From positions 1 to 64,000 of the IMG/VR virus record IMGVR_UViG_3300050015_000167: a DNA stretch of 64,000 nucleotides; one strand, given 5' to 3'. This DNA is from a virus. Positions within the stretch are counted from its first letter, which is position 1. Every line of letters begins with the position of its first letter. Made by a program: the position numbers and the translations under genes. This document shows, in pieces, positions 1 to 40,032 of this stretch. Below the pieces are notes generated by a model, which made no database searches, was not told the origin of the DNA, and worked only from the letters and a program-made list of their open reading frames with translations.

Positions 1-417
1 CTCCTTAAAAACATTGGAGTATCCGACCACTCCGAAGTCATTGATGCTCTCCAAGTACTCCGGTGTAATGGAGTGGAAGACACCCTCTGGTTGCTCCGGA
101 GTACCGCATGTTTTGAAGACACGGCTCAGGCATGGGCGGAGTACAATAAGGTGAAGGCTCCGGCATGGGCGGAGTACAATAAGGTGAAGGCTCCGGCATG
201 GGCGGAGTACAATAAGGTGACGGCTCAGGCATGGGCGGAGTACGATAAGGTGACGGCTCAGGCACGGGCGGAGTACGATAAGGTGAAGGCTCAGGCACTG
301 GCGGAGTACGATAAGGTGAAGGCTCAGGCACTGGCGGAGTACGATAAGGTGAAGGCTCAGGCATGGGCGGAGTACAATAAGGTGAAGGCTCCGGCATTAG
401 AAAATATACTTTCGTAA
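1..417 (+). CDS. 3' part of a gene entering from the left edge; C-terminus made of eight 11-aa repeats AEY[ND]KV[KT]A[PQ]A[WLR]
   Basis: Frame 1 is open from base 1 to TAA 415-417. The 33-bp repeat is in frame. The next promoter begins at 422. Confidence 0.6.
   Translation, partial: LLKNIGVSDHSEVIDALQVLRCNGVEDTLWLLRSTACFEDTAQAWAEYNKVKAPAWAEYNKVKAPAWAEYNKVTAQAWAEYDKVTAQARAEYDKVKAQALAEYDKVKAQALAEYDKVKAQAWAEYNKVKAPALENILS
121..399. repeat. 33-bp tandem repeat, about 8.5 near-identical copies
   Basis: Unit GCGGAGTACAATAAGGTGAAGGCTCCGGCATGG (few variable positions) starts at 136, 169, 202, 235, 268, 301, 334 and 367. Confidence 0.9.
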
Positions 418-421
418 GTAT

Positions 422-456
422 TTGACATCCATCGCAGAATGTGAGATACTTGAAAT
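422..456 (+). promoter_or_regulatory. sigma70-like promoter abutting the start codon
   Basis: TTGACA 422-427; 17 bp; TGaGATACT (-10 at 445-450); 6 nt; ATG 457. Confidence 0.65.
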
Positions 457-885
457 ATGAAGACACAAGACGAACTACTCCTTGACTTAGTACGAAGCCT
501 CCCTGAACTAGTCCTAACTGGCAGCCGGTACTTCGGTACGGCCCGCCGAGATTCGGACTGGGACTTCATGTTGCCCGCTGGTCTGGAATACATGCTGCCG
601 GAATCGTTTTTCCTGAAGTCCGAGAATCGTGGTCACTACAACGATCCGTGCGTGGAACAAGTGTGGGAATCGTATGCGTTGAATGTCCATGTGCAAGTCG
701 TCACCGACATGGAAACCAAGATTGCCGCTCAGAAGATCATCCGTGACGCCGGCGCCCTTGTTGGTTTGGGAAAGGAACAGCAGAAGGCAGTCTGGACGGC
801 AGTTGTCAACGCCCTCCTAATTCGTCGGTGGCGGCCGGCCGATCTCTCAGCGGATACGTCTATTAGTTTTGGAAGTTCTTCCTAA
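457..885 (+). CDS. pol-beta-fold (minimal) nucleotidyltransferase-like protein
   Basis: TGSRYFGTARRDSDWDF gives GS-x10-DxD, the G[SG]...[DE]x[DE] signature of MNT-type nucleotidyltransferases. 142 aa, preceded by a promoter. Confidence 0.55.
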   Translation: MKTQDELLLDLVRSLPELVLTGSRYFGTARRDSDWDFMLPAGLEYMLPESFFLKSENRGHYNDPCVEQVWESYALNVHVQVVTDMETKIAAQKIIRDAGALVGLGKEQQKAVWTAVVNALLIRRWRPADLSADTSISFGSSS

Positions 886-985
886 TGTGCCCGAGTAACA
901 CTTGGGGAGAAACTCACCTTCCAAATACCCCGGCGTTAGTAGCGGACCACCCGCGAAACCGCCGGGTTTCTTTAGGCCCAAACTT

Positions 986-1042
986 TCGTTATGATAACAG
1001 AAACCACTTGACAACCATGTTAGTAACTGTTACACTTTAAAT
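986..1042 (+). promoter_or_regulatory. early promoter cassette (palindrome + sigma70-like promoter, leaderless geometry)
   Basis: CGTTATGATAACAG 987-1000; TTGACA 1008-1013; 17 bp; TACACT 1031-1036; 6 nt; ATG 1043. Confidence 0.65.
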
Positions 1043-1225
1043 ATGAATGAAACCGTGAAACCGTATCGTGATATGCCGGCCACATGGAACGCACGCAAAA
1101 AGTTGGTTCTTCTTCCTCCTGATTTGACCGAGGAATTCTGGCACGGTGGAGGACACAATTGTTCTGGAGTAGAAGGACCCTCAATGCGTAAATGGGCAAT
1201 TGAAACGTTCAAGTATTGGTTTTAG
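1043..1225 (+). CDS. hypothetical small early protein (60 aa)
   Basis: ORF starts exactly 6 nt after the -10 box. Confidence 0.5.
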   Translation: MNETVKPYRDMPATWNARKKLVLLPPDLTEEFWHGGGHNCSGVEGPSMRKWAIETFKYWF

Positions 1226-1264
1226 ATTGTTTCCTTTTAGATTCTTCAGAGCGTGCATTCCTGC

Positions 1265-1294
1265 TTGACTTTCAATAAACTAAAATGTTATACT
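1265..1294 (+). promoter_or_regulatory. sigma70-like promoter (leadered)
   Basis: TTGACT 1265-1270; 18 bp; TATACT 1289-1294; AGAGGTG precedes ATG 1314. Confidence 0.45.
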
Positions 1295-1313
1295 TGTATT
1301 AGAGGTGAATTGT

Positions 1314-1475
1314 ATGGCGATGACGGTTTCTGTATCAGTGGCCCAAGGCATTCAATACATTATAGGACAATCACTTATGGTAGGTGGCCAATGGCTCAAA
1401 ATTTGTGGTAAATTTCCAATAATGGATGAAACTGGGAAAGTTACCCATTATAACATTTTAGTGGAAAAGAGGTAA
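1314..1475 (+). CDS. hypothetical small protein (53 aa, below ORF-track cutoff)
   Basis: ATG 1314 with AGAGGTG Shine-Dalgarno; TAA 1473-1475; hand translation. Confidence 0.3.
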   Translation: MAMTVSVSVAQGIQYIIGQSLMVGGQWLKICGKFPIMDETGKVTHYNILVEKR

Positions 1476-1776
1476 TCATAGTGGGGTGGTCTGGATACAA
1501 AGAATATGTAAAAGAGGATGTTACTCTTGCCATTTTCTATGACGCGGGTCTAAAACGTTGGTATGCTTTCCGACCCGGAACAAATGATGCGGCAATATAT
1601 TTCCGTAGATGGTAATATATTCTTTTCGATATAGGTCCTACATGGTTCAAAACTTATGAGGATGCCAAATTGGAAGTAACCGCAAGAGGTTTCAAAGTAT
1701 TCTTTCCTAATATGATAAAGGAAATTATACCAGGGGAAGAACCTTGGTAACGGATGTAATAAAAAAAGGAAAATAA

Positions 1777-1953
1777 ATGATAAACGTTATATTGGTTGTT
1801 GCTTGGATTCTTGTAGTAACAATGGCGCTGACTTTCTGGATATCTCCAAAAGGATGCCGTTATCTTTCTCTTCGGTTATTTGCTCGTGCGGAGCAACTTG
1901 AAATTGGACGCAAAACGTATCATGATACAATTGCCTCCAATATGTATTTGTAG
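1777..1953 (+). CDS. hypothetical small membrane protein (58 aa)
   Basis: AAAGGA before ATG 1777; hydrophobic N-terminus MINVILVVAWILVVTMALTFWI; TAG 1951-1953. Confidence 0.35.
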   Translation: MINVILVVAWILVVTMALTFWISPKGCRYLSLRLFARAEQLEIGRKTYHDTIASNMYL

Positions 1954-1976
1954 AATCAGTTTTGGAGGTAGACTAA

Positions 1977-2186
1977 ATGCCATTCTGGGATGATGATTAC
2001 CCCGATTATGACCGTACTCCAGATGAATCTGAATTCCGTGATCCCGGGGGAAATTCTGCTCTACGTGCCGGTAAACGGACTAAACCGTGCCCTACATGTG
2101 GCAGAAAGAATGCTTTGACCGTAAAGGACGTTCAATTGGGTTATCAATGTGATCCGTGCGCGAATCGCGCCGAAAGAGGATTTTAA
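1977..2186 (+). CDS. small zinc-ribbon protein
   Basis: CPTC...CDPC pair of CxxC motifs; GGAGG before ATG 1977. Confidence 0.55.
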   Translation: MPFWDDDYPDYDRTPDESEFRDPGGNSALRAGKRTKPCPTCGRKNALTVKDVQLGYQCDPCANRAERGF

Positions 2187-2323
2187 TGGACAAAGCGCAT
2201 CTAGTTATGGAGAAGTATTTCGATACGGACGTGACCGATTACGAGTCGGCCATGGACGTATTTCTGGACAACGACGTTGATCCGGAGATTGCTCGTTTCA
2301 TCGCCAGCACGATGTTCCCATAA
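2186..2323 (+). CDS. hypothetical small acidic protein (45 aa)
   Basis: ATG overlaps the upstream TAA (TAATG). Followed by hairpin GAGGGC-AAAA-GCCCTC. Confidence 0.35.
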   Translation: MDKAHLVMEKYFDTDVTDYESAMDVFLDNDVDPEIARFIASTMFP

Positions 2324-2350
2324 GGAAGAGGGCAAAAGCCCTCAAGCATG

Positions 2351-2430
2351 TGTTATGATAACAAGAAGCTTACGTTATGATAACAAGAAACCAGTTGACA
2401 TCCATACCCGGCGCGTGCTATAATCTTAAT
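2351..2430 (+). promoter_or_regulatory. early promoter cassette with two palindromes
   Basis: TGTTATGATAACA 2351-2363 and CGTTATGATAACA 2373-2385; TTGACA 2395-2400; 18 bp; TATAAT 2419-2424; 6 nt; ATG 2431. Confidence 0.7.
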
Positions 2431-2685
2431 ATGATTACAATGGCTTTGAATGAAAACGAAGTAGCGTTGTTCCGATTCGCGTTTCAGAAGTGGGCAAAGA
2501 TTCCCGACTCCGATCCATACAAGTACTCAATTGCCGTGTACCTGACCAAGAATGAAATCCGCCTTTTGAGGCACGGATTAGATTTATGGATGGATGAGGA
2601 TTCATCTATTTTTCCTTCTCCAGAAACAAATGCGGGAACAGCATTATTCCACGCTATGATGGAATTTGAGGAATGCGAAGAATAG
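2431..2685 (+). CDS. hypothetical early protein (84 aa)
   Basis: ORF track gives 2377..2685, but 2377-2430 is the palindrome/promoter. ATG 2431 lies 6 nt after TATAAT. Confidence 0.55.
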   Translation: MITMALNENEVALFRFAFQKWAKIPDSDPYKYSIAVYLTKNEIRLLRHGLDLWMDEDSSIFPSPETNAGTALFHAMMEFEECEE

Positions 2686-2810
2686 AAACCATTTTCCTCA
2701 CCGCTGTAATGTTGATGGTGGCGATATTATTTTCCTATATCGTCACCCAAGCATTGATAGATATATTTTGGATTTTGTGGTATTGTTATCCTTTTGGTTT
2801 CTAAAGCCTC

Positions 2811-2823
2811 TGTTATCATAACG
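2811..2823. promoter_or_regulatory. solitary copy of the palindrome
   Basis: TGTTATCATAACG, about 125 bp upstream of the next -35 box. Confidence 0.5.
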
Positions 2824-2946
2824 TTAGTTTCCCCTACTTTAGCGTTACAGTTTGCGTTGTATTTTGGCCCATGCTGTAGTATCAGACTGTATGGACAAAT
2901 CGAACCTAGAGCATTGTAGCGCGATAAAATAAATGTAATTCGACTA

Positions 2947-2980
2947 TTGACAAGCATATATAGGTTTGATATTATAGATC
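2947..2980 (+). promoter_or_regulatory. sigma70-like promoter, leaderless geometry
   Basis: TTGACA 2947-2952; 17 bp; TATTAT 2970-2975; 5 nt; ATG 2981. Confidence 0.65.
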
Positions 2981-3283
2981 ATGAGCGAATTAAGAAACAA
3001 CACTGTTTCCACCGATAAATTCGATTACGCAAATCGAGTTTATTCCGCTGAAATTTCCGATTTAGGACAATCGTTCCGATTCACCCAAATTTACACGGAT
3101 GCAGCGGATCGTGGTTTCACCCTTCAATCCCGAACAGGGAAAGTTGCCAATTTCTTTGTAGCGCACCGGCACGAAGATGGTGAAGGTGATACTACTCATT
3201 GGACTTTATTGCCGACGCCAGAGGCGATCCGACAAAATCCTAACCTTCATGATGTCCATATAGTGCTGTTCAACCATGATTAG
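2981..3283 (+). CDS. hypothetical early protein (100 aa)
   Basis: ORF begins 5 nt after the -10 box. Confidence 0.6.
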   Translation: MSELRNNTVSTDKFDYANRVYSAEISDLGQSFRFTQIYTDAADRGFTLQSRTGKVANFFVAHRHEDGEGDTTHWTLLPTPEAIRQNPNLHDVHIVLFNHD

Positions 3284-3293
3284 GAGTTATCCA

Positions 3294-3527
3294 ATGTACG
3301 ATGGCTACGATGATTACGAATTAGATTCCAGAGAGGCGTTCTATGAACAGGATGACCTCGAAACCTTCAACCAGAATGAAGCGGATGATTACCGCAATGA
3401 GGGATCAGATGACAGTGACCTGGATTACGATCTTGATGCGGATTTGGACTTCTTGGACGAATTAGAAGACTTCCTTTATCACCGAGATGAAGCCACACGG
3501 CTCGGTGATGATATTTCCTATCAGTAA
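3294..3527 (+). CDS. extremely acidic small protein (Asp/Glu/Tyr-rich)
   Basis: AGGAG 3281-3285 then ATG 3294 (ORF track start 3276). Sequence MYDGYDDYELD...DSDLDYDLDADLDFLDELEDF. Confidence 0.6.
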   Translation: MYDGYDDYELDSREAFYEQDDLETFNQNEADDYRNEGSDDSDLDYDLDADLDFLDELEDFLYHRDEATRLGDDISYQ

Positions 3528-3620
3528 CCAACAAATTGGTCGAGACTCACGCTAATCGGTAAAACCTGGTAGTAGAATGGTTAGACAATAAGCCAGGTAG
3601 CTTCAATCACAAGGAATTCT

Positions 3621-3645
3621 CCGGCGACAGATGTTCGCCGGGTTT
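3621..3645 (+). terminator. hairpin with short T tract
   Basis: CCGGCGA-7 nt-TCGCCGG followed by GTTTCC. Confidence 0.5.
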
Positions 3646-3662
3646 CCTTGGCCTCAAGGTCT

Positions 3663-3720
3663 CGTTATCATAACAAATTCTTGCTTGACAGGATACAGTT
3701 ATTTGTGTTATGATTTAATC
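3663..3720 (+). promoter_or_regulatory. early promoter cassette
   Basis: CGTTATCATAACA 3663-3675; TTGACA 3685-3690; TATGAT 3709-3714; 6 nt; ATG 3721. Confidence 0.65.
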
Positions 3721-4047
3721 ATGATGAAACGTGATCCGAAACACCAGAAGAGATTCGAGAAACTGGCTTCTCTTCTCCTTTTGACCGTAGAGGAAGCCGA
3801 TGAATTGTGCCGGGCCGCCTCTTCCACATGGGAATACATCGCATACGATTGCCTCGCTGCCGATCCTGGTCGTGACATGAAAGCGGATGAAGTGATCGAA
3901 GTAGTCCTGGATGCGAACCATATTACTTCGAATACTCGCAATCTTTCCCCCAAAGTCCGCACACTGTTGGATTCGTACACGATGTCACCGACCATCCAGA
4001 AACTCCTCAAGGAATTCGTGTTCGTGTATAAGTCTTACGGAATGTAA
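3721..4047 (+). CDS. hypothetical early protein (108 aa)
   Basis: ORF track 3631..4047 runs through the promoter. ATG 3721 is 6 nt after the -10 box. Confidence 0.6.
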   Translation: MMKRDPKHQKRFEKLASLLLLTVEEADELCRAASSTWEYIAYDCLAADPGRDMKADEVIEVVLDANHITSNTRNLSPKVRTLLDSYTMSPTIQKLLKEFVFVYKSYGM

Positions 4048-4059
4048 AAGGAAACCAAA

Positions 4060-4437
4060 ATGATGAAACGTCAAGAGTTTACCGTGTCCTTTAAAATCGT
4101 GTCGTTCCTTTCCGAAAAAGATGTAATAGAATCCGTTAAAGCCCTTTTGGCTCTTACATCTCCAAATATGTTTTATTTGACCAAGAAGGAAACCGAATCC
4201 ATTACCATTTACAAATTGGAAGAAACCAAAAATTCATTCGTTTCCGAATTCGTCCTGAAAGCCATCTTCGATGACTATTCCGAGTATTGGGATGAATGTA
4301 ATGGAAGTTGGTCTCTCTATCTCGATACTGCCACAAGATATGTCACCGAGGAAGACGCACGGAACGTCCTTTTGCCAGTTACGGCAGTAATGGACGTTTT
4401 CCAAAACAAAGGCGTTATCACAATCAGGGAAGTTTAG
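4060..4437 (+). CDS. hypothetical protein (125 aa)
   Basis: AAAGGAAA before ATG; noticeably more AT-rich than its neighbours. Confidence 0.6.
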   Translation: MMKRQEFTVSFKIVSFLSEKDVIESVKALLALTSPNMFYLTKKETESITIYKLEETKNSFVSEFVLKAIFDDYSEYWDECNGSWSLYLDTATRYVTEEDARNVLLPVTAVMDVFQNKGVITIREV

Positions 4438-4444
4438 TCTCCCC

Positions 4445-4618
4445 ATGTATAAACTCACAGTAGAATACCAACCACATTTTGATCATTACCGTATTACTGT
4501 CAAACATAAGGGAAAGTACCGGATTGAGACTATTTGGGAACATTTTGCTATCAAAGAATTTGTTGCCGTTACCATCACCAATGCCACCTCTTGGATGATT
4601 AAACACGGCGGGTTCTAA
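4445..4618 (+). CDS. hypothetical small protein (57 aa)
   Basis: Hand translation MYKLTVEYQPHFDHYRITVKHKGKYRIE...; TAA 4616-4618. Confidence 0.4.
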   Translation: MYKLTVEYQPHFDHYRITVKHKGKYRIETIWEHFAIKEFVAVTITNATSWMIKHGGF

Positions 4619-5182
4619 TAGCACAATCCAACCGATCTATTAACACACCTCCTATTCATTATGAAACCAAAAATATTGTTTATTATCACCATTTCCATAT
4701 TGTTGAGTTTCATTCTGATATATGGTGTGCTTTGGATCCTTTGTTTCATTCTTTCAGAAATTTTATGAGATTCCCTTTACTCCTTTCATGTGCTATTTTA
4801 ATCGGTAAATTGGTCGGAGAAGGTATATTCCTGCTTCTCTTGAAAATATTCTGAAGGAATCCATTTTCCATAGCCATATTATTGTGGCGAGATATACTTA
4901 AGTGGCTGCTAAAGTAACAAAAAGAGGAAATAAAGGGAAAAGAATATATCGTGCCGAGAGGTAAGGAGTATCCACATGGTTGCTCCAATAATAGGGATGA
5001 AATGAGGATGAGGACCATTAGTGACCTCTTAAGTCCTTTGAGTCCATTGGAGTCCCTTTGGTTCCGTTGTCAGTCGACCCAGCACCCCAAAACTCCAGCG
5101 GTCCCAGTGGTCCCAGAGGACCTCTGTGGTTCCCAGTCCCTCTGTGTCCATTGTCCCTCTCCGGTTTTCTCCTCACAAGCTT

Positions 5183-5302
5183 CTGTTATCATAACGGACC
5201 CTTCCAGTCCACCAAGGTCCCGTTATCATAACGCCCTCTTGCCAATAATTCCCAAAAAACTTTGATATTCCGCTTGACAGTAGCCCCGGGGACTGCTATA
5301 TT
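5183..5302 (+). promoter_or_regulatory. two palindromes plus sigma70-like promoter (leadered)
   Basis: CTGTTATCATAACGG 5183-5197; CGTTATCATAACG 5221-5233; TTGACA 5274-5279; 17 bp; TATATT 5297-5302; 49-nt leader with AAGGAG before ATG 5352. Confidence 0.6.
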
Positions 5303-5351
5303 AGAAGAGTAGACAGAAACACACACTCGCAGAAAACGAAGGAGATACATT

Positions 5352-5777
5352 ATGAGTTTCAAACGAATCGAAGGCGTGCTGCCCAACGGCAACCCCAAGA
5401 CCCTTTTCCGCGCTATTGCGCTTAATACTCAACAGTTTGCCCTCGTCCAGAGCATCATTGCTTTCCACAATGGCGAGACCAAGCTCACCCGGAAACAGAT
5501 CCTCGCTTGCAACGAGACGTTGCGCCCCGGGAAAGCATACATGCCGTACTTCATTTCCAAGAACGTCGCGTGCCGCAGGGCCGGCGATGCGTTCGGGATC
5601 TATAACTTGTCCGGTCTGAAAGCTGCGTCCGGAAAGTCCGTCGCCGCTCCGACCCCCAAGAAGGAAAAGAAGGCGAAGGCTAAGAAGGAAGCGAAGGCTA
5701 AGCGTGGACAGCCGGCTGTGGAAACGCCGGCCGTCGAAGTGAGCACGGAAGTCGCCGTGGTCCCCGAAGTCGCATAA
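5352..5777 (+). CDS. protein with globular N-domain and Lys/Ala/Pro-rich basic tail; paralog of 9766..10221
   Basis: Tail is PKKEKKAKAKKEAKAKRGQP. Strong SD. Shares MSFKR.EG...LFRAI and LRPGKAYMPYFISKNVAC with 9766. Confidence 0.7.
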   Translation: MSFKRIEGVLPNGNPKTLFRAIALNTQQFALVQSIIAFHNGETKLTRKQILACNETLRPGKAYMPYFISKNVACRRAGDAFGIYNLSGLKAASGKSVAAPTPKKEKKAKAKKEAKAKRGQPAVETPAVEVSTEVAVVPEVA

Positions 5778-5797
5778 CCACCCAGTATATCACCAAA

Positions 5798-5826
5798 CGG
5801 AAAGGGTATCAAGCCCTTTCCGTTTT
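5798..5826 (+). terminator. rho-independent terminator
   Basis: CGGAAAGGG-7 nt-CCCTTTCCG followed by TTTT. Confidence 0.7.
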
Positions 5827-5843
5827 CCTTTTGGGGCAAGAAC

Positions 5844-5913
5844 CTGTTATCATAACAGGACCTTGACGATAAAACCACTTGACAATGTATTCAGAATGTG
5901 AGATACTGTGAAT
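5844..5913 (+). promoter_or_regulatory. early promoter cassette
   Basis: CTGTTATCATAACAG 5844-5858; TTGACA 5879-5884; 17 bp; TGaGATACT (-10 at 5902-5907); 6 nt; ATG 5914. Confidence 0.7.
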
Positions 5914-6150
5914 ATGAAACAGATCAGTATTCTCGAAGCCCAAGAGATCACCGCGGCCGCTGGCGCTGCCATTGCCGGCCTTCTGAAGACCTACGGTGTT
6001 ACCGTGAATGGTAAACTCGTGCCGCCCGGGCCGACGGTGCGTGGCTATGTGGCTTGGAATAAAAAGCTCAAGGCCGTATACAACCCGGCCATTACATGGC
6101 GTCCGGATGCGTTCTTGGGGGAAACCCAACAGTATGCCCTGGTGAGCTAG
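5914..6150 (+). CDS. hypothetical early protein (78 aa)
   Basis: ORF track starts at GTG 5908, inside the gap after the -10 box. ATG 5914 fits the 6-nt rule. Confidence 0.6.
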   Translation: MKQISILEAQEITAAAGAAIAGLLKTYGVTVNGKLVPPGPTVRGYVAWNKKLKAVYNPAITWRPDAFLGETQQYALVS

Positions 6151-6153
6151 GGA

Positions 6154-6232
6154 GAGGGCTTCGGCCCTCAAGGTCCTGTTATCATAACAGAATTATCTTG
6201 ACATCCATTGGTGTGCGTGCTACTATATGAAT
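6154..6232 (+). promoter_or_regulatory. hairpin + palindrome + promoter cassette
   Basis: GAGGGC-TTCG-GCCCTC 6154-6169; CTGTTATCATAACAG 6176-6190; TTGACA 6198-6203; 17 bp; TACTAT 6221-6226; ATG 6233. Confidence 0.7.
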
Positions 6233-6562
6233 ATGAAATTGATTATCAACGTAGCAAACGAGCGGTACGCCAACGTAGAGGTATCCGGTTTCAAGTTCGA
6301 GGTTGAACTCGAAAACGTACCGGAAGACCGCCAGTGGAAGATTGAGGAGCTCCGTGGGGAGCGCGACCGCCTACAGGTCGACTTCAATAACGTGGCTGAC
6401 CAGTTGAGCCAGGCACTCGCAACGATCCGCACCCAACGTACGGAAGCGGCGCCTGTCCGCAACAAAATCAACGCCATCAAGAAGGTCCGCGAACTGACCA
6501 ACATGGGCCTCAAGGAAGCCGTGGACCTCACCGATGCCATGGTTGTGGCGTTAAACCAGTAA
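6233..6562 (+). CDS. early protein with ribosomal L7/L12 C-terminal-domain-like segment
   Basis: INAIKKVRELTNMGLKEAVDLTDA resembles the IK.VR..TGLGLKEAKDLV segment of L7/L12. ORF track start 6227 abuts the -10 box. Confidence 0.55.
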   Translation: MKLIINVANERYANVEVSGFKFEVELENVPEDRQWKIEELRGERDRLQVDFNNVADQLSQALATIRTQRTEAAPVRNKINAIKKVRELTNMGLKEAVDLTDAMVVALNQ

Positions 6563-6589
6563 CCAACAAGACCGGAACCAGTCCGGTTA

Positions 6590-6616
6590 CCGGAGGGGAC
6601 AGCAACCCTCCGGTTT
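6590..6616 (+). terminator. rho-independent terminator
   Basis: CCGGAGGG-8 nt-CCCTCCGG followed by TTT; a second small hairpin at 6571-6587. Confidence 0.65.
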
Positions 6617-6632
6617 CCAAGGCCTCAAGGTC

Positions 6633-6689
6633 CTGTTATCATAACAGAAACCACTTGACACCAGGCCATTGGTGTGTTAGTATTAGATT
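6633..6689 (+). promoter_or_regulatory. early promoter cassette
   Basis: CTGTTATCATAACAG 6633-6647; TTGACA 6655-6660; 17 bp; TAGTAT 6678-6683; 6 nt; ATG 6690. Confidence 0.7.
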
Positions 6690-7274
6690 ATGAAACGCAT
6701 TACACTGTTGGCTTTGATGATTGCCTCTGCCTGCTACGGCCAGAGGGTTCAAACAATGGCAGGGAATCTGCCACGTGACCTCCTGGGACCTGTTGATATG
6801 CGGGACACCCGAACGGTTTGCAACGGACCGTGCATTTGGGGAAATGCGGACAGCGTTTTAATGCCGATCACCTTTTCCCCACCGGCCGGCTTCCGTGTGA
6901 AGATCTTGAGCCTCCGCGGCGATATGGTATCGTGGATCAAAAGCCTTCCGGGTGACAAAGCCACTCCGTTGGAGAGCATGGCCGGGACTTTGATGGGCTT
7001 CGAGGAAAACGATACCCAGACGGACCTGGCATGCACCTACTGTGCAATGCGTACCCCACTGTATATCCAAGACAGTGTGGGAGAAAAGTCTCCCAATCAC
7101 CGCGCCGACTTCAATTACGATGGTGTGGACCTGGTGCTGCCGGCCGATAACACCCTCAACCTCAAGATTGCGGCCTGGCTCAATACGACCGGAAAGCCAA
7201 TTCACATTGAAGCCACATACGTAATCAAGTTCCAATTCGTTCGAATCCGTGACAACGAAGAGGAGGCCAAGTAA
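6690..7274 (+). CDS. exported protein (194 aa) with Sec-type signal peptide
   Basis: N-terminus MKRITLLALMIASACYGQ; several Cys in the mature part. Confidence 0.65.
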   Translation: MKRITLLALMIASACYGQRVQTMAGNLPRDLLGPVDMRDTRTVCNGPCIWGNADSVLMPITFSPPAGFRVKILSLRGDMVSWIKSLPGDKATPLESMAGTLMGFEENDTQTDLACTYCAMRTPLYIQDSVGEKSPNHRADFNYDGVDLVLPADNTLNLKIAAWLNTTGKPIHIEATYVIKFQFVRIRDNEEEAK

Positions 7275-7390
7275 TGTTGTATCTCATCATCGCCGGTATA
7301 TGGATTATATTGTGTTGCCTTTCGGCGCTCTGGTTTTATTGTGCCAAGGCACAGGAACGGAGGCTCCGCAATATGCGGAAGGGGAGATAA
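7274..7390 (+). CDS. small single-pass membrane peptide (38 aa)
   Basis: TAATG overlap with the upstream gene; MLYLIIAGIWIILCCLSALWFYC then basic tail. Confidence 0.35.
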   Translation: MLYLIIAGIWIILCCLSALWFYCAKAQERRLRNMRKGR

Positions 7391-7403
7391 ACTCCCCAAG
7401 ACC

Positions 7404-7460
7404 CTGTTATCATAACAGAATTATCTTGACATCCCCAGTGGACTATGTTATCATTGTTAT
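7404..7460 (+). promoter_or_regulatory. early promoter cassette
   Basis: CTGTTATCATAACAG 7404-7418; TTGACA 7426-7431; 17 bp; TATCAT 7449-7454; 6 nt; ATG 7461. Confidence 0.7.
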
Positions 7461-7739
7461 ATGACAAGTTTAGAAATGCAGAAGGCCATCGGCCAGCCCG
7501 TGATATACGAGAGCCACGGCCTCCGTTTTGTATGCGTGGTGAGGGATGTAAAGGTCTCTTATGGACAACCACGCTTCCTGATTACGCCAATGATGGGAAC
7601 AGGAGAGACCTTTGTAGAGATTGGCACGATTTCACCGATGCCAGCGGATAAGAACCAATTGCGATATACACCGGAACGCCACGTGAGCCCGGGGTACGCT
7701 GCCCTCCCTAGTGGTCAGAACGGAATGATTGTCCGTTAG
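7461..7739 (+). CDS. hypothetical early protein (92 aa)
   Basis: Starts 6 nt after the -10 box. Confidence 0.6.
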   Translation: MTSLEMQKAIGQPVIYESHGLRFVCVVRDVKVSYGQPRFLITPMMGTGETFVEIGTISPMPADKNQLRYTPERHVSPGYAALPSGQNGMIVR

Positions 7740-7750
7740 TGAAATAGTTG

Positions 7751-7785
7751 TTGACATCCGCCAACGATTGTGAGATACTAATTAC
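7751..7785 (+). promoter_or_regulatory. sigma70-like promoter, leaderless geometry, no palindrome
   Basis: TTGACA 7751-7756; 17 bp; TGaGATACT (-10 at 7774-7779); 6 nt; ATG 7786. Confidence 0.65.
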
Positions 7786-7965
7786 ATGAGCAAATCGAGT
7801 AACACACCGGGCGCCGCACGAGCGCATTATGAGACGCGCAAAGCGAATCGCCCCGTCCAGATCTGGAAAAAGGCTTTGAAGTCGAAGCCCGGTGTCCCCT
7901 CCACGCGCATTGCCGCGGCCAAGGGTGAAGTGGGAGCCATCCCAGTCAAGTCGTTTTCGAAGTAA
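7786..7965 (+). CDS. hypothetical basic protein (59 aa, below ORF-track cutoff)
   Basis: Hand translation MSKSSNTPGAARAHYETRKANRPVQIWKK...; TAA 7963-7965. Confidence 0.45.
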   Translation: MSKSSNTPGAARAHYETRKANRPVQIWKKALKSKPGVPSTRIAAAKGEVGAIPVKSFSK

Positions 7966-7977
7966 AGGAGCCACACC

Positions 7978-8112
7978 ATGAAGGATTTCGCCGTCGTCAC
8001 GGATTGCCGGACGTATTTCGCTACGTCCGTTGCCGCTAACGTTTACGGATGGGCCACAGGCGGCACCGTCGAAGTCTGGACAAAGAACGGCTGGAAGCCG
8101 TTGAAGGGATAA
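7978..8112 (+). CDS. hypothetical small protein (44 aa)
   Basis: AAGGAG before ATG 7978; TAA 8110-8112. Confidence 0.4.
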   Translation: MKDFAVVTDCRTYFATSVAANVYGWATGGTVEVWTKNGWKPLKG

Positions 8113-8156
8113 GTTTCATACCCGGAGAAGTAGCGCTAAAATTCTCCGATCGCTAG

Positions 8157-8208
8157 CCGGAAGGTGAGCTATAGAGGTCTGCGACCTCCATTGGCCCTTC
8201 CGGTTTTT
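8157..8208 (+). terminator. compound hairpin terminator
   Basis: CCGGAAGG...CCTTCCGG enclosing GAGGTC-TGC-GACCTC, followed by TTTTT. Confidence 0.65.
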
Positions 8209-8224
8209 CTTTGTGACCAAGGTT

Positions 8225-8238
8225 CTATTATCATAACG
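8225..8238. promoter_or_regulatory. degenerate copy of the palindrome
   Basis: CTATTATCATAACG; no well-spaced promoter follows. Confidence 0.4.
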
Positions 8239-8402
8239 AAAGCTTGATATAGACCGCTCTAATAGCGTGGCCACTGTATACTAAATGATGCGATTTCTAC
8301 CCCTACAATGACGCTGGCTGCATTTGTCCATACCCCCTGATACTACAGCATGGGCCGGCCAGCCGACGCAGCCAAGGGCTCGGTATCGATAACGAATAGT
8401 GC

Positions 8403-8436
8403 TTGACTATTAGAACTACCTGTGTTAGTATAGATC
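8403..8436 (+). promoter_or_regulatory. sigma70-like promoter, leaderless geometry
   Basis: TTGACT 8403-8408; 17 bp; TAGTAT 8426-8431; 5 nt; ATG 8437. Confidence 0.65.
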
Positions 8437-8625
8437 ATGGCATTCAATGAAGTAGCTTTCAGAGCGGATCCCGATTCGTTTGATATCAGGGTTTGCGCGG
8501 AAGAGACCGTACTCGGTATGCCTGGTATGGCATTCTTACAATGGAGAGACGCATTCTTGGACACCAAGCCCGGCGTATTCATGCTCCACAAAGCCGAGTG
8601 TCTAATAGATCCATGCGGAAAATAG
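8437..8625 (+). CDS. hypothetical early protein (62 aa)
   Basis: Starts 5 nt after the -10 box. Confidence 0.5.
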   Translation: MAFNEVAFRADPDSFDIRVCAEETVLGMPGMAFLQWRDAFLDTKPGVFMLHKAECLIDPCGK

Positions 8626-8732
8626 TACACATGATGATCCTGTGGACATGGATGATGCCGTGTCCACAGACCCAAGTGGCAACGTTGATTGTCATAGGGA
8701 TATGGATATGGAATCGGAAAGCTTCCAAGGAC

Positions 8733-8783
8733 CCGTTATGATAACGGTGTCTATTAGAACGGAAGCTCCTGTTATGATAACGG
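8733..8783. promoter_or_regulatory. pair of palindromes 36 bp apart without an obvious promoter
   Basis: CCGTTATGATAACGG 8733-8747 (perfect 15-mer) and CTGTTATGATAACGG 8769-8783. Confidence 0.55.
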
Positions 8784-8800
8784 TACCTTGGGGCCTGGAA

Positions 8801-8835
8801 ATGCCCTCCGGGGAGAACCGGAGGGCATGGTTTTT
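8801..8835 (+). terminator. strong rho-independent terminator at the switch to leftward genes
   Basis: ATGCCCTCCGG-6 nt-CCGGAGGGCAT followed by GGTTTTT. Confidence 0.7.
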
Positions 8836-8978
8836 ACCGGGGCATTGCCCGCAGTCTGATGTGAGGTGGTGATGTCCAGGTCAGGGTCTCGGCGGCCCGC
8901 TGGCGTTTGCAATCTGCGATGAACCGTTTCCAGGTACGGAGTATGGACTTCATTTTACCCTCCCAGGAGAAACCCCGC

Positions 8979-9347
8979 TTATGCGGGGTTGAGCATTTTC
9001 GCTTTCGCTTTGGCTTCGATCATTTCGAGTAGCTGCCCGCGATACTTGGCAATCGTGGGGACGGGGACGGTGCCGCGTTTCCAGGGGCGGCGGCAATTGC
9101 GCAGGTCGTCGGCGGTCAGATGGCCCCCGGCGAGTATCACGCGAGCATAGTTCCCGAATTCGCGGGCGTCGGCGACCTGGAAGCCTACGGTGTTTTTGAC
9201 GTAGGTCTCGCCCGTCTGTTTTTCTACTTCGGTCTGGCGTTTATACAGTGCGACGATGGCCATCTCGACCCATGCGTCATTAGTCGAAAGCATATCGAGG
9301 ATCTTTGCTTTCGTCCAGTCGGTTACTTTGTTGTAATTAACGTACAT
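8979..9347 (-). CDS. hypothetical protein (122 aa)
   Basis: ORF track 8979..9398. Minus-strand TTGCAA-16 bp-TACTAT lies at 9384-9357, 9 nt before ATG 9347. The spacer contains a CGTTATCAT half-site. Confidence 0.55.
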   Translation of the reverse strand: MYVNYNKVTDWTKAKILDMLSTNDAWVEMAIVALYKRQTEVEKQTGETYVKNTVGFQVADAREFGNYARVILAGGHLTADDLRNCRRPWKRGTVPVPTIAKYRGQLLEMIEAKAKAKMLNPA

Positions 9348-9586
9348 AACATAATCATAGTAGCATGATAACGGGTGCTTGCAACATGTTTTTATCATAA
9401 TCGAACATTAAAATCTGTTAATGTTCCAACAGGGCCACCTGTGGTGCGCCCACTGTGGCGTGAGATATAAGCGCCCAGGGGCGGATTACAGCGTAGTCCA
9501 ACTATAGCGGAATTCCAAGCTTTTGTCAAGTATCCGAACATTAAAGTTTTTTAATAATTCAACGTCGAAAAAACTTCAGAATTCGC

Positions 9587-9620
9587 TTGACCCAGGGGGT
9601 GCGCTCTGCTACTATGAATC
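9587..9620 (+). promoter_or_regulatory. sigma70-like promoter, leaderless geometry
   Basis: TTGACC 9587-9592; 17 bp; TACTAT 9610-9615; 5 nt; ATG 9621. Confidence 0.6.
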
Positions 9621-9764
9621 ATGATTGAAACGACGATACAGAGCGCAAAAAACCTAATCGACTCGAATCCGGGCGCGGCCGCCGCTGCCATCGCCTTGGG
9701 AGTCTTTATCGCCGCCGCTTATCTCATCGTTTCGTTCTATAAAATTTACACAGGAGCTCACTAA
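9621..9764 (+). CDS. small membrane peptide (47 aa)
   Basis: Hand translation MIETTIQSAKNLIDSNPGAAAAAIALGVFIAAAYLIVSFYKIYTGAH; TAA 9762-9764. Confidence 0.4.
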   Translation: MIETTIQSAKNLIDSNPGAAAAAIALGVFIAAAYLIVSFYKIYTGAH

Positions 9765-9765
9765 A

Positions 9766-10221
9766 ATGTCATTCAAACGCCTCGAAGGTCTCACCGCGAA
9801 GGGTACGCCGATCACCCTGTTCCGCGCAATTGTTGTTAACGCCGAGCAATTCAAGCTGGCCCAAGATATGATCGCCGCCAACAACGGCGAGCCCCTGATG
9901 ACCCGCAAAGTCATCCTGTCCATGAATGAAGCCCTACGCCCCGGGAAAGCATACATGCCGTACTTCATTTCCAAGAACGTCGCCTGCAAGACCAAGACGT
10001 TCGGTGTTTACGACCTGTCTAAACTGAAGCTTTCGGCCGCCGCGAAGGCCGCTGCCGTCGAAACCCCCGCGCCCGAATCGACACCGATCTCCGCGCCGAA
10101 GACCAAGCGCGTCCGCGCAAAGCGCGAATCCAAGCCGAAGCTTGGGCAGCCCGAAACCCCCGTCGCCGAGTCGGTCGAGCACCCGCCCCTGGGCATCGAA
10201 GCCCCCGCCGTCACCGAGTAA
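9766..10221 (+). CDS. paralog of 5352..5777 (globular N-domain + basic/Pro-rich tail)
   Basis: AGGAG before ATG. Shares a 47-bp identical stretch (9937-9983) with 5523-5569. Confidence 0.7.
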   Translation: MSFKRLEGLTAKGTPITLFRAIVVNAEQFKLAQDMIAANNGEPLMTRKVILSMNEALRPGKAYMPYFISKNVACKTKTFGVYDLSKLKLSAAAKAAAVETPAPESTPISAPKTKRVRAKRESKPKLGQPETPVAESVEHPPLGIEAPAVTE

Positions 10222-10322
10222 GTTCTGATAGAATCTCCTCTCCCGAATCGCTCCCCGCTCCCCGGGGGGCTTTTTCAGGCCTACGCGTTATGTAAGTAAC
10301 CACTTACTTACTTCGCAAGGTC

Positions 10323-10336
10323 CCGTTATCATAACC
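10323..10336. promoter_or_regulatory. palindrome copy between convergent terminators
   Basis: CCGTTATCATAACC preceded by CAAGGTC. Confidence 0.5.
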
Positions 10337-10350
10337 GAAGCTTGGGCCTG

Positions 10351-10377
10351 AAAAAGCCCCCGACCGAAGCCGGGGGC
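10351..10377 (-). terminator. rho-independent terminator of the leftward gene
   Basis: Minus strand reads GCCCCCG-8 nt-CGGGGGC followed by TTTTT. Confidence 0.65.
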
Positions 10378-10393
10378 GAAGGACTGGGCGATT

Positions 10394-10717
10394 TTAGCAG
10401 AGTTTCGAAATTTGGGTCGACGCGGTGATAGCGCCCGTCTGAAAGCGGCCGAAGTGGCGAATAACGAAGGGCTGAACCTCGCGGAGGTCAACGTCGGGGT
10501 TGCTCTGCGGATACGTCATATTCGCGGAGATCCCGTTGTTTTTGAGAAGACGAAAGCGGGAGCGGCGAAGCTTGTAAGCGGCGAAGGTCGTCGGCGTCTC
10601 GCCCGCTAACAGTTTGGCGATAAGCTTCAACGAGCCGGCAATGTGGCCTTGCTTGCGGGCGAGGAGGTTGCTGTTTTTGCGCTGTTCCCGGCGCAGGGTT
10701 TTCTCGGTTTTGGTCAT
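10394..10717 (-). CDS. hypothetical basic protein (107 aa)
   Basis: GC-rich ORF followed by a terminator; Arg/Lys-rich N-terminus. Confidence 0.55.
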   Translation of the reverse strand: MTKTEKTLRREQRKNSNLLARKQGHIAGSLKLIAKLLAGETPTTFAAYKLRRSRFRLLKNNGISANMTYPQSNPDVDLREVQPFVIRHFGRFQTGAITASTQISKLC

Positions 10718-10725
10718 TTGTCTCC

Positions 10726-10890
10726 TTAGAAGTCTTCAGATGCAATGAAGGCGCGCCATGCGGGGAGCTCCCAGCCGTCGGGCGCATTGTAGTACAGATT
10801 CGAATGGGTCGAGCATTCCACGCGCAATTCAGCGATTAGCGCGGGGTCGTTTGTTTTCTTGACGTTGATGTAGTCGGCTAGCGTGCTCAT
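10726..10890 (-). CDS. hypothetical small protein (54 aa)
   Basis: ORF track 10726..10956. A minus-strand TTGACG promoter-like element lies inside 10891-10956, so ATG 10890 (MSTLADYINV) is preferred. Confidence 0.45.
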   Translation of the reverse strand: MSTLADYINVKKTNDPALIAELRVECSTHSNLYYNAPDGWELPAWRAFIASEDF

Positions 10891-11097
10891 ATTCAATCTC
10901 ACTGTACTGTATACACTATGGGCTAGTTCCGAGCGCACGTCAAGAGAAATCTGCATTATTCTTTATTAAGATTTGTTAATGAATACACTTTGTACACCTG
11001 TACAATCGTAGAATGCTCTGTGCTGCGTCGGGGCTCAAGTGAGTACAACTACTCAAGTTAGCATCGCCGAGCGCATCACAAGCTTAACACGCTGAAT

Positions 11098-11364
11098 ATG
11101 CATAGCTACACACGATGTACGAATGCTCTGGTTACCCCTGGTTTGACGCTGGCTGGGTTTCTGGGTCAATCTGATGGTTTAGCATGGGCCCAGGGTTATA
11201 AATCGATTCTAGAGCATTCTAGCGAATGGATTAAAGAAAAGGATGAGATTGAAGCGGCAATGTGTATGAAAGCAAAGGGGATAGGGGTTTGGGAGTATAT
11301 GCAAGTGAATTGCAGGTACTCGGAAGTTATTGAGGCCATTGGGGTTAGCTGGGAGTGCGTTTAG
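11098..11364 (+). CDS. hypothetical protein (88 aa) in the compositional transition zone
   Basis: ORF only; intermediate GC; no clear promoter or SD. Confidence 0.3.
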   Translation: MHSYTRCTNALVTPGLTLAGFLGQSDGLAWAQGYKSILEHSSEWIKEKDEIEAAMCMKAKGIGVWEYMQVNCRYSEVIEAIGVSWECV

Positions 11365-11542
11365 GGAATCATAAAAGTGGGAAATCGAGAGTAGATACTA
11401 TCGATTAAAGTTTGTGTTCGTATGTGTGTATCAAAGAATTCCCATTCCAAAAAATTTTTCTGGAGGACATAGAGGACTCAGTGGACCTTTGTGTCCATTC
11501 GTGATTCGAGAATATCATAATACTCAATGATAAATAGAGAAT

Positions 11543-11902
11543 ATGATAACCGAAACCGAATTGAAACTGATCCGTAAACAACAAAAAGAAGTTAGAGATC
11601 GATATAAACAAAATCATCCAGAAGGAGCAATGGACGCTCATCGTCAAAAGAAATACGGAATCACTCCTGAACAATTTCATTCTCTTATATTAAAACAAAA
11701 TAATTGTTGTGCGATTTGTGGTAAACCTGAGACCATAAAATGGAGAGGAAAAATTAAAAAACTTGCTATAGACCATAACCACGATACAGGAAAAATTCGT
11801 GGGTTATTATGTCATTTCTGTAATGTCGGTATAGGACAATTTAGAGATTCTTTACCATTACTACAAAAAGCTATGGACTATATCAAATTACATGATTCTT
11901 AA
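11543..11902 (+). CDS. endonuclease VII-type HNH endonuclease (free-standing)
   Basis: CAICGK...LAIDHNHDTGKIRGLLCHFCNVGIGQF matches the C.IC...DHdH.TG.vRGlLC..CN..lG signature of the T4 endo VII family. Confidence 0.8.
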   Translation: MITETELKLIRKQQKEVRDRYKQNHPEGAMDAHRQKKYGITPEQFHSLILKQNNCCAICGKPETIKWRGKIKKLAIDHNHDTGKIRGLLCHFCNVGIGQFRDSLPLLQKAMDYIKLHDS

Positions 11903-11919
11903 ACCAAAAAATTTTTTAC

Positions 11920-12090
11920 TTAGGAAATATTTTTAATTATAAACCAGGGATTTAATGCTTGTTCAGAAACATGTGCTATGCCTAAACCTTGTGGTGTTTT
12001 CACAAACACATAATCAGGAGGTAATGATATATCAACTTCTACAGGCTTACCAAAAATGGCTAGTAATTGCTCTTCCGTATCAATTATCAT
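11920..12090 (-). CDS. hypothetical small protein (56 aa)
   Basis: Hand translation MIIDTEEQLLAIFGKPVEVD...; starts 1 nt after the stop of 12092..13144. Confidence 0.3.
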   Translation of the reverse strand: MIIDTEEQLLAIFGKPVEVDISLPPDYVFVKTPQGLGIAHVSEQALNPWFIIKNIS

Positions 12091-39344: not shown

Positions 39345-39350
39345 AGTACC

Positions 39351-39358
39351 CTAAATAC
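39351..39358 (+). promoter_or_regulatory. CTAAATAC motif 4 nt before the start codon
   Basis: GTACCCTAAATAC-TAAC-ATG 39363. Confidence 0.3.
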
Positions 39359-39362
39359 TAAC

Positions 39363-39575
39363 ATGCCAATAGATATCATTCACGGAAAAGGTTATAGAAT
39401 TGGAGAATCTGATAGAATAATCGGAGATTCTACTGCTGACCCAGAAGGTTTTATAGTTCTTAATCAACAAAATGGTAAATTATTTCTTGTTGCTGGTGGT
39501 ATATGGACTGATGGTGGAACTTTTTCTAATGCCAATTTTACTCAAGAATATTTTGATACCTGGATTTTAAGTTAA
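39363..39575 (+). CDS. small protein, N-terminal paralog of 39585..40031
   Basis: GKGYRIGESDRIIGDSTADPEGFIVLNQ versus PKYRIGNSGRIIGSSAVPPEGFILLNL. Confidence 0.55.
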   Translation: MPIDIIHGKGYRIGESDRIIGDSTADPEGFIVLNQQNGKLFLVAGGIWTDGGTFSNANFTQEYFDTWILS

Positions 39576-40031: not shown

Positions 40032-40032
40032 T

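Follow-up and report, generated by a model that had tools for sequence, protein, structure and literature searches.

A conserved 29-bp palindrome at terminator–promoter junctions in the early region of a soil T4-like phage clade

Why should a short palindrome recur, almost letter for letter, between the small genes at one end of a phage sequence? The question is raised by positions 1 to 64,000 of IMG/VR virus record IMGVR_UViG_3300050015_000167 (the whole 64-kb stretch is hereafter called the window). A sequence-only reading had listed about 15 copies of a 15-bp palindrome in its first 10 kb, and had offered two explanations for them: the binding site of a dimeric regulator that controls the whole early field at once, or a recombination hotspot that moves genes. 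Here we report that the palindrome forms the conserved middle part of cassettes of the promoter-early stem-loop (PeSL) type, which join terminators to promoters in the variable early region of a soil T4-like phage clade. The most likely mechanism, judging from the layout of the sites, is that a symmetric, sequence-specific DNA-binding protein occupies these junctions, a proposition that we regard as evenly balanced.

Copies, symmetry and genomic setting

The degenerate core GTTATSATAAC occurs 14 times without mismatch in the 64 kb, compared to an expectation of 0.08, and this number was reached by none of 100 shuffles, placing the motif far above compositional chance. The exact cores start at positions 988, 2352, 2374, 2812, 3664, 5185, 5222, 5846, 6178, 6635, 7406, 8735, 8771 and 10325. 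A fifteenth copy, ATTATCATAAC at 8227, departs from the pattern by one mismatch, and every copy that had been listed earlier, this degenerate one included, is present. The copies are confined to 988-10335; at up to two mismatches the remainder of the 64 kb contains chance-level matches only, among them the half-sites that had been pointed out near 11540 and 15975. Site quality is bimodal, a site being either perfect or absent, with two-mismatch copies very rare. All 15 copies are intergenic, according to both our own gene map and gene calls made independently on a second assembly of this phage (L284).

The core sits inside a longer element of 29 bp with two-fold symmetry, CAAGGnnCnGTTATsATAACnGnnCCTTG (29-mer form: CAAGGTCCTGTTATCATAACAGGACCTTG), as seen in the contexts of the window copies and in a compilation of 61 sites. 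Its central 11 bp do not vary; further out, positions ±6 are restricted to Y/R, and positions ±7 are variable. The 15-bp palindrome described earlier, CTGTTATCATAACAG, has a real core, but in its full form it is exact in only 4 copies and belongs to the 29-bp element. The arms CAAG and CTTG are each ~75% conserved, and symmetrically so, across the 61 sites, in whose selection they played no part. The sequence CAAGGTCC that had been noted in front of the copies is indeed there, not as a mere flank but as the left arm of the 29-bp palindrome. Of the 15 window copies, 13 have the left arm CAAG and 6 the right arm CTTG, whose place is taken by the linker to the promoter in promoter-locked copies. 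The centre base is mixed (C in 10 copies, G in 5) and unrelated to the direction of transcription, with 7 C to 6 G at promoter-locked sites, and it is flipped between the orthologous sites at 10325 in the window and 5960 in the related contig L283. The inner half-sites (near ±3) and the outer ones (near ±12.5) are separated by one helical turn.

Since the copies lie after terminators and before promoters, they are mostly untranscribed, and this location counts against an RNA-level role, namely a hairpin in read-through transcripts that would be cut by RNase III, stabilise the 3' end or add a further terminator. Such a role would suit the 13-bp stem that the full consensus can form (–19 kcal/mol) and the position of the copies after hairpins, three of which lack a T tract. 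The promoter-locked copies, however, have a predicted folding energy of only –4 kcal/mol, and compensatory pairing of the kind seen in repetitive extragenic palindromes (REPs) is not found: besides this weak folding, one arm is often missing, and there is no covariation at ±6, where T is paired with A five times and with G four times, and C with A three times, with G twice and with C once. Scans of the window for tRNAs and Rfam families gave no matches. We give the RNA-level explanation hardly any credence. Bacterial REPs and bacterial interspersed mosaic elements (BIMEs) are likewise short intergenic palindromes repeated downstream of genes, but REPs are imperfect, conserved in structure, transcribed and linked to RAYT transposases, whereas here the sequence is conserved, the copies are untranscribed and no transposase was seen. 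What is conserved is sequence and not pairing, with exact symmetry, which is the signature of a symmetric protein recognising duplex DNA. The one-turn spacing of the half-sites would suit a dimer whose subunits each have two reading heads, or else a dimer of dimers.

By the gene content of the 64 kb, the window belongs to a distant T4-type myophage: it encodes a gp20-like portal (~49% identity to cyanomyophage gp20), tail sheath, large terminase, scaffold, a gp46/47-type nuclease, UvsW, UvsY and a gp55-like sigma factor. No close relative was found in INPHARED by megablast with 11 kb. All of the palindrome copies are in a region of small open reading frames (ORFs) at 1-10.4 kb, which adjoins the block of neck, gp15 and small-terminase (terS) genes. 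The independent related contig L283 passes in the same order from a small-gene region to neck, gp15 and small-terminase genes. Because L283 is collinear across this junction, the assembly is not chimeric, and the small-gene region corresponds to a T4-type hyperplastic early region (HPR). The GC content is 45-52% in the first 12 kb (1-12000) and ~33% in the backbone (12001-64000), and the contrast is repeated in related HPR loci (42-52% GC), which suggests that the cassettes are drawn from a gene pool other than that of the core genome.

Both ends of this region have features of their own. Near the window start, about ten tandem 33-nt units (88-450) encode an 11-residue repeat (AEYNKVKAPAW-like) that ends an ORF open at position 1, and public assemblies stop at this repeat. 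At the border between HPR and backbone there is a cluster of homing-endonuclease-type genes (11543-11902, 13883-14407 and further ORFs to ~15 kb), comprising two Endonuclease_7 domain proteins, one GIY-YIG plus NUMOD3 protein and more NUMOD3 ORFs.

Architecture of the junctions

The order of each unit is a terminator hairpin, the palindrome in the gap behind it, a near-consensus sigma70 promoter and a small early gene. The repeated units of hairpin, palindrome, promoter and gene that had been recognised from the sequence are those of PeSL architecture in a T4-type early region. A hairpin lies upstream of nine copies, at one of two fixed distances: 6 nt, in which case it has no T tract, or 18-22 nt, with a TTTCC-type tail. 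This gap to the upstream terminator is as tight as the tie to the promoter downstream. Nine promoters that match the consensus at 10-12 of 12 positions stand downstream of palindromes.

The four units with starts at 1043, 6233, 6690 and 7461 had been described as having a gap of exactly 7 bp before TTGACA, filled by only two linker versions, AAACCAC and AATTATC, and both statements are correct. Copy 1 (979..1007, core 988-998, centre G) lies 19 nt behind a terminator-type hairpin (929..966, +) and is joined by AAACCAC to TTGACA at 1008, where a sigma70-type promoter begins (1008..1036, +) that has the palindrome directly upstream and serves the leaderless start at 1043. Copy 9 (6169..6197, core 6178-6188) follows the hairpin GAGGGC-TTCG-GCCCTC (6154..6169, +) at 6 nt and leads through AATTATC to TTGACA at 6198. 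The same two linkers recur at copy 10 (6626..6654, core 6635-6645), which is 18 nt downstream of a terminator hairpin (6589..6614, +) and connected by AAACCAC to TTGACA at 6655, and at copy 11 (7397..7425, core 7406-7416), which is 6 nt downstream of the hairpin GGGGAG-ATAAA-CTCCCC (7381..7397, +) and connected by AATTATC to TTGACA at 7426. Promoters of the same type as that at 1008, each directly downstream of a palindrome, are located at 2395-2424, 3685-3714, 5879-5907, 6198-6226, 6655-6683 and 7426-7454. The gene at 6233-6562, also found in L278, L283 and L284, encodes a conserved HPR protein with a match, in its C-terminal stretch, to the C-terminal domain of ribosomal protein L7/L12 (Pfam E = 1.6e-7).

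Other spacings are found at the remaining promoter-linked copies. Copy 2 (2343..2371, core 2352-2362), with the hairpin GAGGGC-AAAA-GCCCTC (2328..2343, +; no T tract) 6 nt upstream, is the first of a tandem pair whose centres are 22 bp apart; the second, copy 3 (2365..2393, core 2374-2384), has an 8-bp linker to TTGACA at 2395 in a promoter that matches the consensus at 12 of 12 positions. Copy 5 (3655..3683, core 3664-3674), 19 nt behind a terminator hairpin with a TTTCC tail (3620..3642, +), places its right arm, ATTCTTG, against TTGACA at 3685, again with an 8-bp linker. Copy 8 (5837..5865, core 5846-5856), 18 nt behind a terminator hairpin (5795..5825, +), has both arms and a 20-bp linker to TTGACA at 5879. 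A decayed copy, CCAAGGGCT-CGGTATCGATAACGA (8372..8395), retains its left arm and a 7-bp linker to TTGACT at 8403. Counted over 12 promoters in four lineages, the linker to the –35 hexamer measures 7 bp nine times and 8 bp three times, and this class comprises about ten unrelated sequences. A second mode of 19-20 bp occurs four times and consists of the full right arm followed by an AT-rich dozen. Once or twice the linker is 4 bp long, the TTG of the arm then doubling as the TTG of the –35 hexamer.

Not all copies are placed in this way. The earlier description of the palindrome as locked just upstream of promoters holds for several copies but was overstated, as about a third have no adjacent promoter. 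Copy 4 (2803..2831, core 2812-2822) is 125 bp from the promoter at 2947. Copies 6 (5176..5204, core 5185-5195) and 7 (5213..5241, core 5222-5232) form a pair upstream of a gene for a 141-aa protein, the second of them 39 bp ahead of TTGACA at 5274. Copies 13 (8726..8754, core 8735-8745) and 14 (8762..8790, core 8771-8781) are a pair at a convergent junction without a nearby promoter, and a terminator hairpin (8801-8828) comes next. Copy 15 (10316..10344, core 10325-10335), with both arms, lies between convergent terminators at 10250-10270 (+) and 10377-10356 (–). Copy 12, the one with the mismatched core (8218..8246, core 8227-8237), also has both arms, and a terminator hairpin lies 22 nt upstream of it (8158..8202, +). 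Conversely, the promoters at 422 and 7751 come directly after a gene, with no terminator between, and have no palindrome copy. Since there are both copies without promoters and terminator-free promoters without copies, the element belongs to terminator–promoter junctions and not to promoters as such.

Two further short elements were seen near the palindromes. A conserved element of ~60-100 nt is present three times in the window, once inverted (2866-2928, +, after copy 4; 8294-8356, –; ~11133-11224, +), and at 3255-3340 in L283. It adjoins promoter-less palindromes and holds TGCTGTAGTATCA and, after it, a leaderless micro-ORF, 13-16 codons long, whose product begins MDK(S/C). The second is a short motif, CTAATAG/CTATTAG, found at 7 places in the HPR compared to 1.1 expected (8259, 8407, 8602 and 8751, also 860, 4615 and 12663), and stands beside palindromes at the convergent junction in every lineage (near palindrome clusters in L274, L278, L250 and L283).

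In 12 of the 14 HPR promoters, an ATG follows the –10 hexamer by 5-6 nt with no Shine-Dalgarno sequence, and the mRNAs of the early cassettes are therefore leaderless. The promoters in question (window 422-9620) include those at 422, 1008, 2395, 2947, 3685, 5879, 6198, 6655, 7426, 7751, 8403 and 9587. Internal genes of HPR operons do carry GGAG-type sites. Among T4-type early genes, so nearly universal a leaderless design is unusual; it may hint at the translation habits of the host.

Relatives and cassette exchange

A scan of IMG/VR with the exact 15-mer returned 111 loci and, save for one phage group (L106, discussed below), single chance matches only. Relatives were found with a pattern of two cores 8-38 bp apart, which led to L115 in IMG/VR (a 179.7-kb contig) and to L249, L250 and L262 in metagenomes; homologues of two conserved HPR proteins gave the longer related HPR segments L274-L277, L278 and L283. 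Counted at no more than one mismatch, with an expectation of at most 0.2 for each, the copies number 10 in L283, 13 in L274, 14 in L278, 8 in L249 and 3 in L262, so that five independent related contig groups carry 3-14 copies each, in the same kind of position. The proteins that L274, L278, L249 and L262 share with the window are 45-62% identical to its own, with the 11-bp core unchanged; L283 is closer, at ~80% nucleotide identity. In the literature, the motif string matched primer sequences only, and nothing relevant was found on similar repeats in T4-like phages.

Targeted alignments between these relatives revealed four independent indels or flank swaps that break at palindromes. In the first, L275 holds a 302-bp cassette of promoter, gene and hairpin that L274 and L276 are without; it lies between two 62-bp direct repeats of hairpin plus palindrome, and the 48-bp crossover window includes the palindrome. 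In the second, the window has a cassette (5866-6168) between copy 8 at its left edge and copy 9 at its right, and in L283 both copies are present 19 bp apart with the same outer flanks. In the third, the window segment 8247-8761, bounded by copy 12 on the left and copy 14 on the right, is represented in L283 by one hybrid copy, which corresponds to copy 12 on its left side and to copy 14 in its right flank. In the fourth, the site at position 3239 of L283 has on its left the flank of window copy 5 and on its right that of window copy 4. The hotspot proposed earlier as an alternative thus gains direct comparative support, and the alignments show that the element is where cassettes are gained, lost and re-joined between genomes. 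Homologous recombination, very active in T4-type phages, is sufficient for the observed events; by analogy with what has been proposed for PeSLs, exchange through the phage's own homologous recombination is most likely. Being the longest invariant patch common to all junctions, the palindrome would be the preferred crossover point.

Site-specific recombination would account for some of these features differently. In such a scheme, the 29-mer would be an 11-7-11 core site of a tyrosine recombinase and cassettes would be excised and integrated in an integron-like manner. The window does encode a possible enzyme, an Xer-like tyrosine recombinase (Phage_integrase; 43823-44503; 226 aa, N-terminally short), the size and layout of the sites resemble dif-type sites (11-6-11), the sites bound the cassettes, and the third event leaves exactly one hybrid site. 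The second event, however, leaves two adjacent sites and not one. The only asymmetry of the site, at its centre of symmetry, is a single base pair, and the orientation given by this centre base is random within one genome, which would produce lethal inversions. The recombinase gene itself is limited to the phage's own 176.8-kb contig: its homologues are no more than 58% identical, longer, and either bacterial (for example from Bryobacteraceae and Terracidiphilus; Acidobacteria) or on short metagenome contigs, with none from the palindrome-bearing relatives of 179.7 kb and 182.6 kb. Nor did the related HPR sequence, ~65 kb in all, reveal a recombinase. The Xer-like gene is also found beside a GC-rich island of its own that has an unrelated 19-nt inverted repeat. 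Taken together, these points make site-specific recombination at the palindrome very unlikely.

The island (39337-44503, 55-58% GC within a 33% GC backbone) is located in the structural and tail-fibre region, followed by the Xer-like recombinase gene. It is flanked by the inverted repeat at 39337-39355 and 43708-43726 (89% complementary), and may be an invertible or acquired element. At 40832-42058 a gene for a leucine-rich-repeat protein holds ~11-14 tandem 69-nt units (40982-41971), most of them 93-98% identical.

A different explanation dispenses with any trans-acting partner: the palindrome would be a passive homology patch, a part of a PeSL-like repeat that is kept uniform by frequent recombination and gene conversion, among the cassettes as well as among co-infecting phages, and serves only as homology for crossovers. 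It fits the four mosaic junctions at palindromes, the near-perfect copies that concerted evolution predicts, and the position of the palindrome, which is that of the proposed PeSL crossover in the AT-rich stretch from stem-loop to –35. Yet such a patch need not be palindromic, need not have symmetric arms and need not stay 7-8 bp from the –35 hexamer amid linker turnover. The neighbouring hairpins and linkers recombine equally often and are not uniform; lineages with protein identities of only 45-60% have one and the same core; and tandem pairs and triples persist, although recombination between direct repeats would collapse them. We consider a purely passive role unlikely.

A putative binding protein and known systems

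The arrangement of the junctions is best explained by the following model. Each small early gene is a self-contained unit that has its own sigma70 promoter, joined without a leader to the start codon of the ORF, and its own terminator hairpin. The 29-bp element, in the untranscribed gap from the hairpin to the next –35 hexamer, would be the recognition site of a symmetric protein. This protein could be a homodimer, or a dimer of dimers that reads four successive major grooves. With the common linker of 7-8 bp, its footprint would extend from about –65 to –37, right up to the –35 hexamer; with the 4-bp linker it would overlap the hexamer. Its likeliest action would be repression (early shut-off), a roadblock that insulates neighbouring units, or both. 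Repression is likelier than activation because the promoters are already near consensus, and a roadblock behind terminators would account for the copies at terminators and at promoter-less convergent junctions. The protein is probably encoded by the phage. The dimeric regulator of the sequence-only reading is plausible in view of the symmetry, the random centre base, the lack of Y/R covariation, the 7-8 bp phasing across divergent linkers and the clade-wide conservation of the sites, although no binding protein was identified.

Three conserved HPR proteins were considered as binders. The first is the 141-aa protein (5352..5777, +), with a Lys/Ala-rich tail, which has a 151-aa paralog (9766..10221, +) followed by copy 15. 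The family is present twice in the window, in L274/L275 and in L249, and as a single copy in L283; in each of these four lineages it has two or three clustered palindromes in front of it, and the gene of the 5352 type always comes after a palindrome pair or triple plus a promoter. On position only, this duplicated protein is a weak best guess. The second is a conserved, all-helical 122-aa protein (phrog_21015; 8979..9347, –), which is flanked by palindromes in all lineages and whose own promoter carries degenerate copies. There (9361..9401, –), a degenerate site is accompanied by a half-site: the match is TTTATCATAAT at 9391-9401, the minus strand reads ATTATGATAAA followed by a 4-bp linker and TTGCAA, and the half-site CCGTTATCAT lies in the spacer. 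The orthologous promoter sites in L250 and L283 have one mismatch. A third, possible candidate is a very basic 107-aa protein (10394-10717, –), conserved in all lineages and matching no known family; in L278 and L274, its gene is directly downstream of palindrome-plus-promoter units.

Several observations weigh against the occupation of the junctions by such a protein. Five of the 14 HPR promoters (422, 1265, 7751, 8403 and 9587) are without an intact palindrome, and six or seven copies are without a nearby promoter. Because of both, the element cannot be a simple system of one operator per early promoter, and the earlier statement that it controls the whole early field at once goes too far. 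The HPR proteins contain no DNA-binding domain of Pfam, PHROG or NCBIfam, and 40 further ORFs of the window, which covers 64 kb of a ~177-kb genome, gave no helix-turn-helix (HTH) or ParB match. The structural model of the 141/151-aa protein is of low confidence (pLDDT 62), with no PDB fold and no Pfam, PHROG or NCBIfam match; the AF2 model of the 122-aa protein is good (pLDDT 85), yet matches no known fold, PDB fold or sequence. The near-identity of the copies could in part stem from concerted evolution or recent cassette exchange instead of selection for binding, and linkers could be constant in length because the promoter-proximal cassette ends share an ancestor and have not undergone indels. 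Finally, recombination at the sites could be site-specific instead of homologous.

The failure to find a DNA-binding domain in the window is also what would be expected if the factor came from elsewhere and the palindrome served a global regulator as its operator. Such a regulator would belong to the host, to a resident plasmid or to an integrative and conjugative element (ICE), and the phage would either exploit it or be silenced by it. The same core does occur in two other settings. In an unrelated group of ~47% GC phages (L106:3851-3882; also L114, L116 and L117), a tandem pair of cores lies between a terminator hairpin and the TTGACA promoter of terS. In seven mobile elements (~50% GC) from metagenome-assembled genomes of Methylococcales (L121, L123, L132, L136, L141, L143 and L144), arrays of the 11-mer take the form of a triple overlapping GTTATGATAACGTTATCATAAC...GTTATCATAAC directly upstream of a kfrA-like gene (KfrA_N domain); XRE-type HTH, rep-like and ParE toxin genes come after it in a plasmid- or ICE-like setting. 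The Methylococcales arrays are probably an autoregulated operator with the same 11-bp core. As these tandem arrays stand just upstream of genes, the palindrome is used in operator-like positions elsewhere, although the factor acting in the window is not thereby identified. By tblastn and tblastx, no proteins are common to the present clade and either the L106 phages or the Methylococcales elements. Against a host regulator, among 120 metagenome and 36 genome matches no carrier outside this phage clade had the 29-bp form with its CAAGG/CCTTG arms, and a scan of 185,579 species genomes for two copies 8-38 bp apart, a pattern that passes over single-copy operators, gave only mobile elements and coding repeats and no chromosomal regulon. 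A host-derived factor is, in our view, quite improbable.

Familiar binding sites were also compared with the palindrome. A LexA box was rejected because its CTGT-N8-ACAG spacing is wrong, Fur and Zur boxes because their half-sites or spacing differ, and DnaA, IHF, NtcA and CRP sites were rejected as well. A promoter UP element was likewise rejected; it need not be an armed palindrome or occur away from promoters.

Returning to a phage-encoded binder, it is conceivable, if doubtful, that one phage protein of unknown fold, maybe the 141/151-aa protein with its histone-like tail, sits at every boundary, where it would switch off or insulate the units and at the same time focus their exchange, making the region an integrase-free counterpart of an integron platform. 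PeSLs have been proposed as the gene-shuffling engine of T4-type phages and consist of generic signals only; a discrete, invariant recognition sequence at the same place makes cassette boundaries easy to find computationally in metagenomes, and points to a putative early regulator or insulator in a T4 lineage. If the binder is one of the conserved HPR proteins without a known fold, it would represent a new DNA-binding family.

Among known systems, the operator arrays of phage and plasmid regulators include the conserved inverted repeats of phiC31, the stoperators of mycobacteriophage L5 and the KorB (OB, TTTAGCSGCTAAA) and KorA operators of RK2. Their cognate proteins are the phiC31 repressor, gp71 and KorB/KorA. 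Such arrays also consist of many near-identical short intergenic sites, some next to a –35 hexamer and some far from promoters, and the KorB site is likewise a palindrome of odd length with a free central base. The present sites are symmetric, intergenic, far above chance and in fixed phase with promoters, though about a third are without one. They differ in that a cognate protein is identified for those arrays and none here, in that those systems belong to temperate phages and plasmids whereas the present phage is T4-type and presumably lytic, and in the greater length of the present site, which has 29 bp and four half-elements.

Integron attC and Xer-dif systems share with the HPR the gene-sized cassettes bounded by a repeated imperfect palindrome, and the window has an Xer-like gene. 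Here, however, the recombinase is not co-conserved with the sites, the orientation of the sites is random, and each cassette has its own promoter and terminator.

The closest comparison is with the PeSLs known from the T4-type phages RB49/phi1, PST/T4 and nt-1/KVP40, for which the AT-rich stretch that separates the stem-loop from the –35 has been proposed as the crossover region and mini-circles have been detected (Arbiol et al. 2010, PMC2839356; Comeau et al. 2014, PMC4122927). Both combine a stem-loop terminator with a strong sigma70-like early promoter, both lie between small ORFan genes in T4-type hyperplastic regions, and both are tied to insertions, deletions and replacements among close relatives, with crossovers proposed between the stem-loop and the –35 hexamer. 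The differences are that PeSLs have a "generally AT-rich region" before the –35, whereas here there is a near-invariant 29-bp palindrome conserved across lineages; that PeSLs end in a Shine-Dalgarno sequence and a start codon, whereas here, in 12 of 14 cases, promoter and start codon are fused and the transcripts leaderless; that the element here also occurs without a promoter and in tandem arrays; and that the HPR here is ~15% richer in GC than the backbone. The earlier designation of a related but distinct cassette family holds, since the invariant palindrome and the leaderless starts set these cassettes apart from PeSLs. The junction described here is thus a clade-conserved variant of the PeSL cassette, in which a discrete 29-bp palindrome replaces the generic AT-rich spacer and the genes are leaderless.

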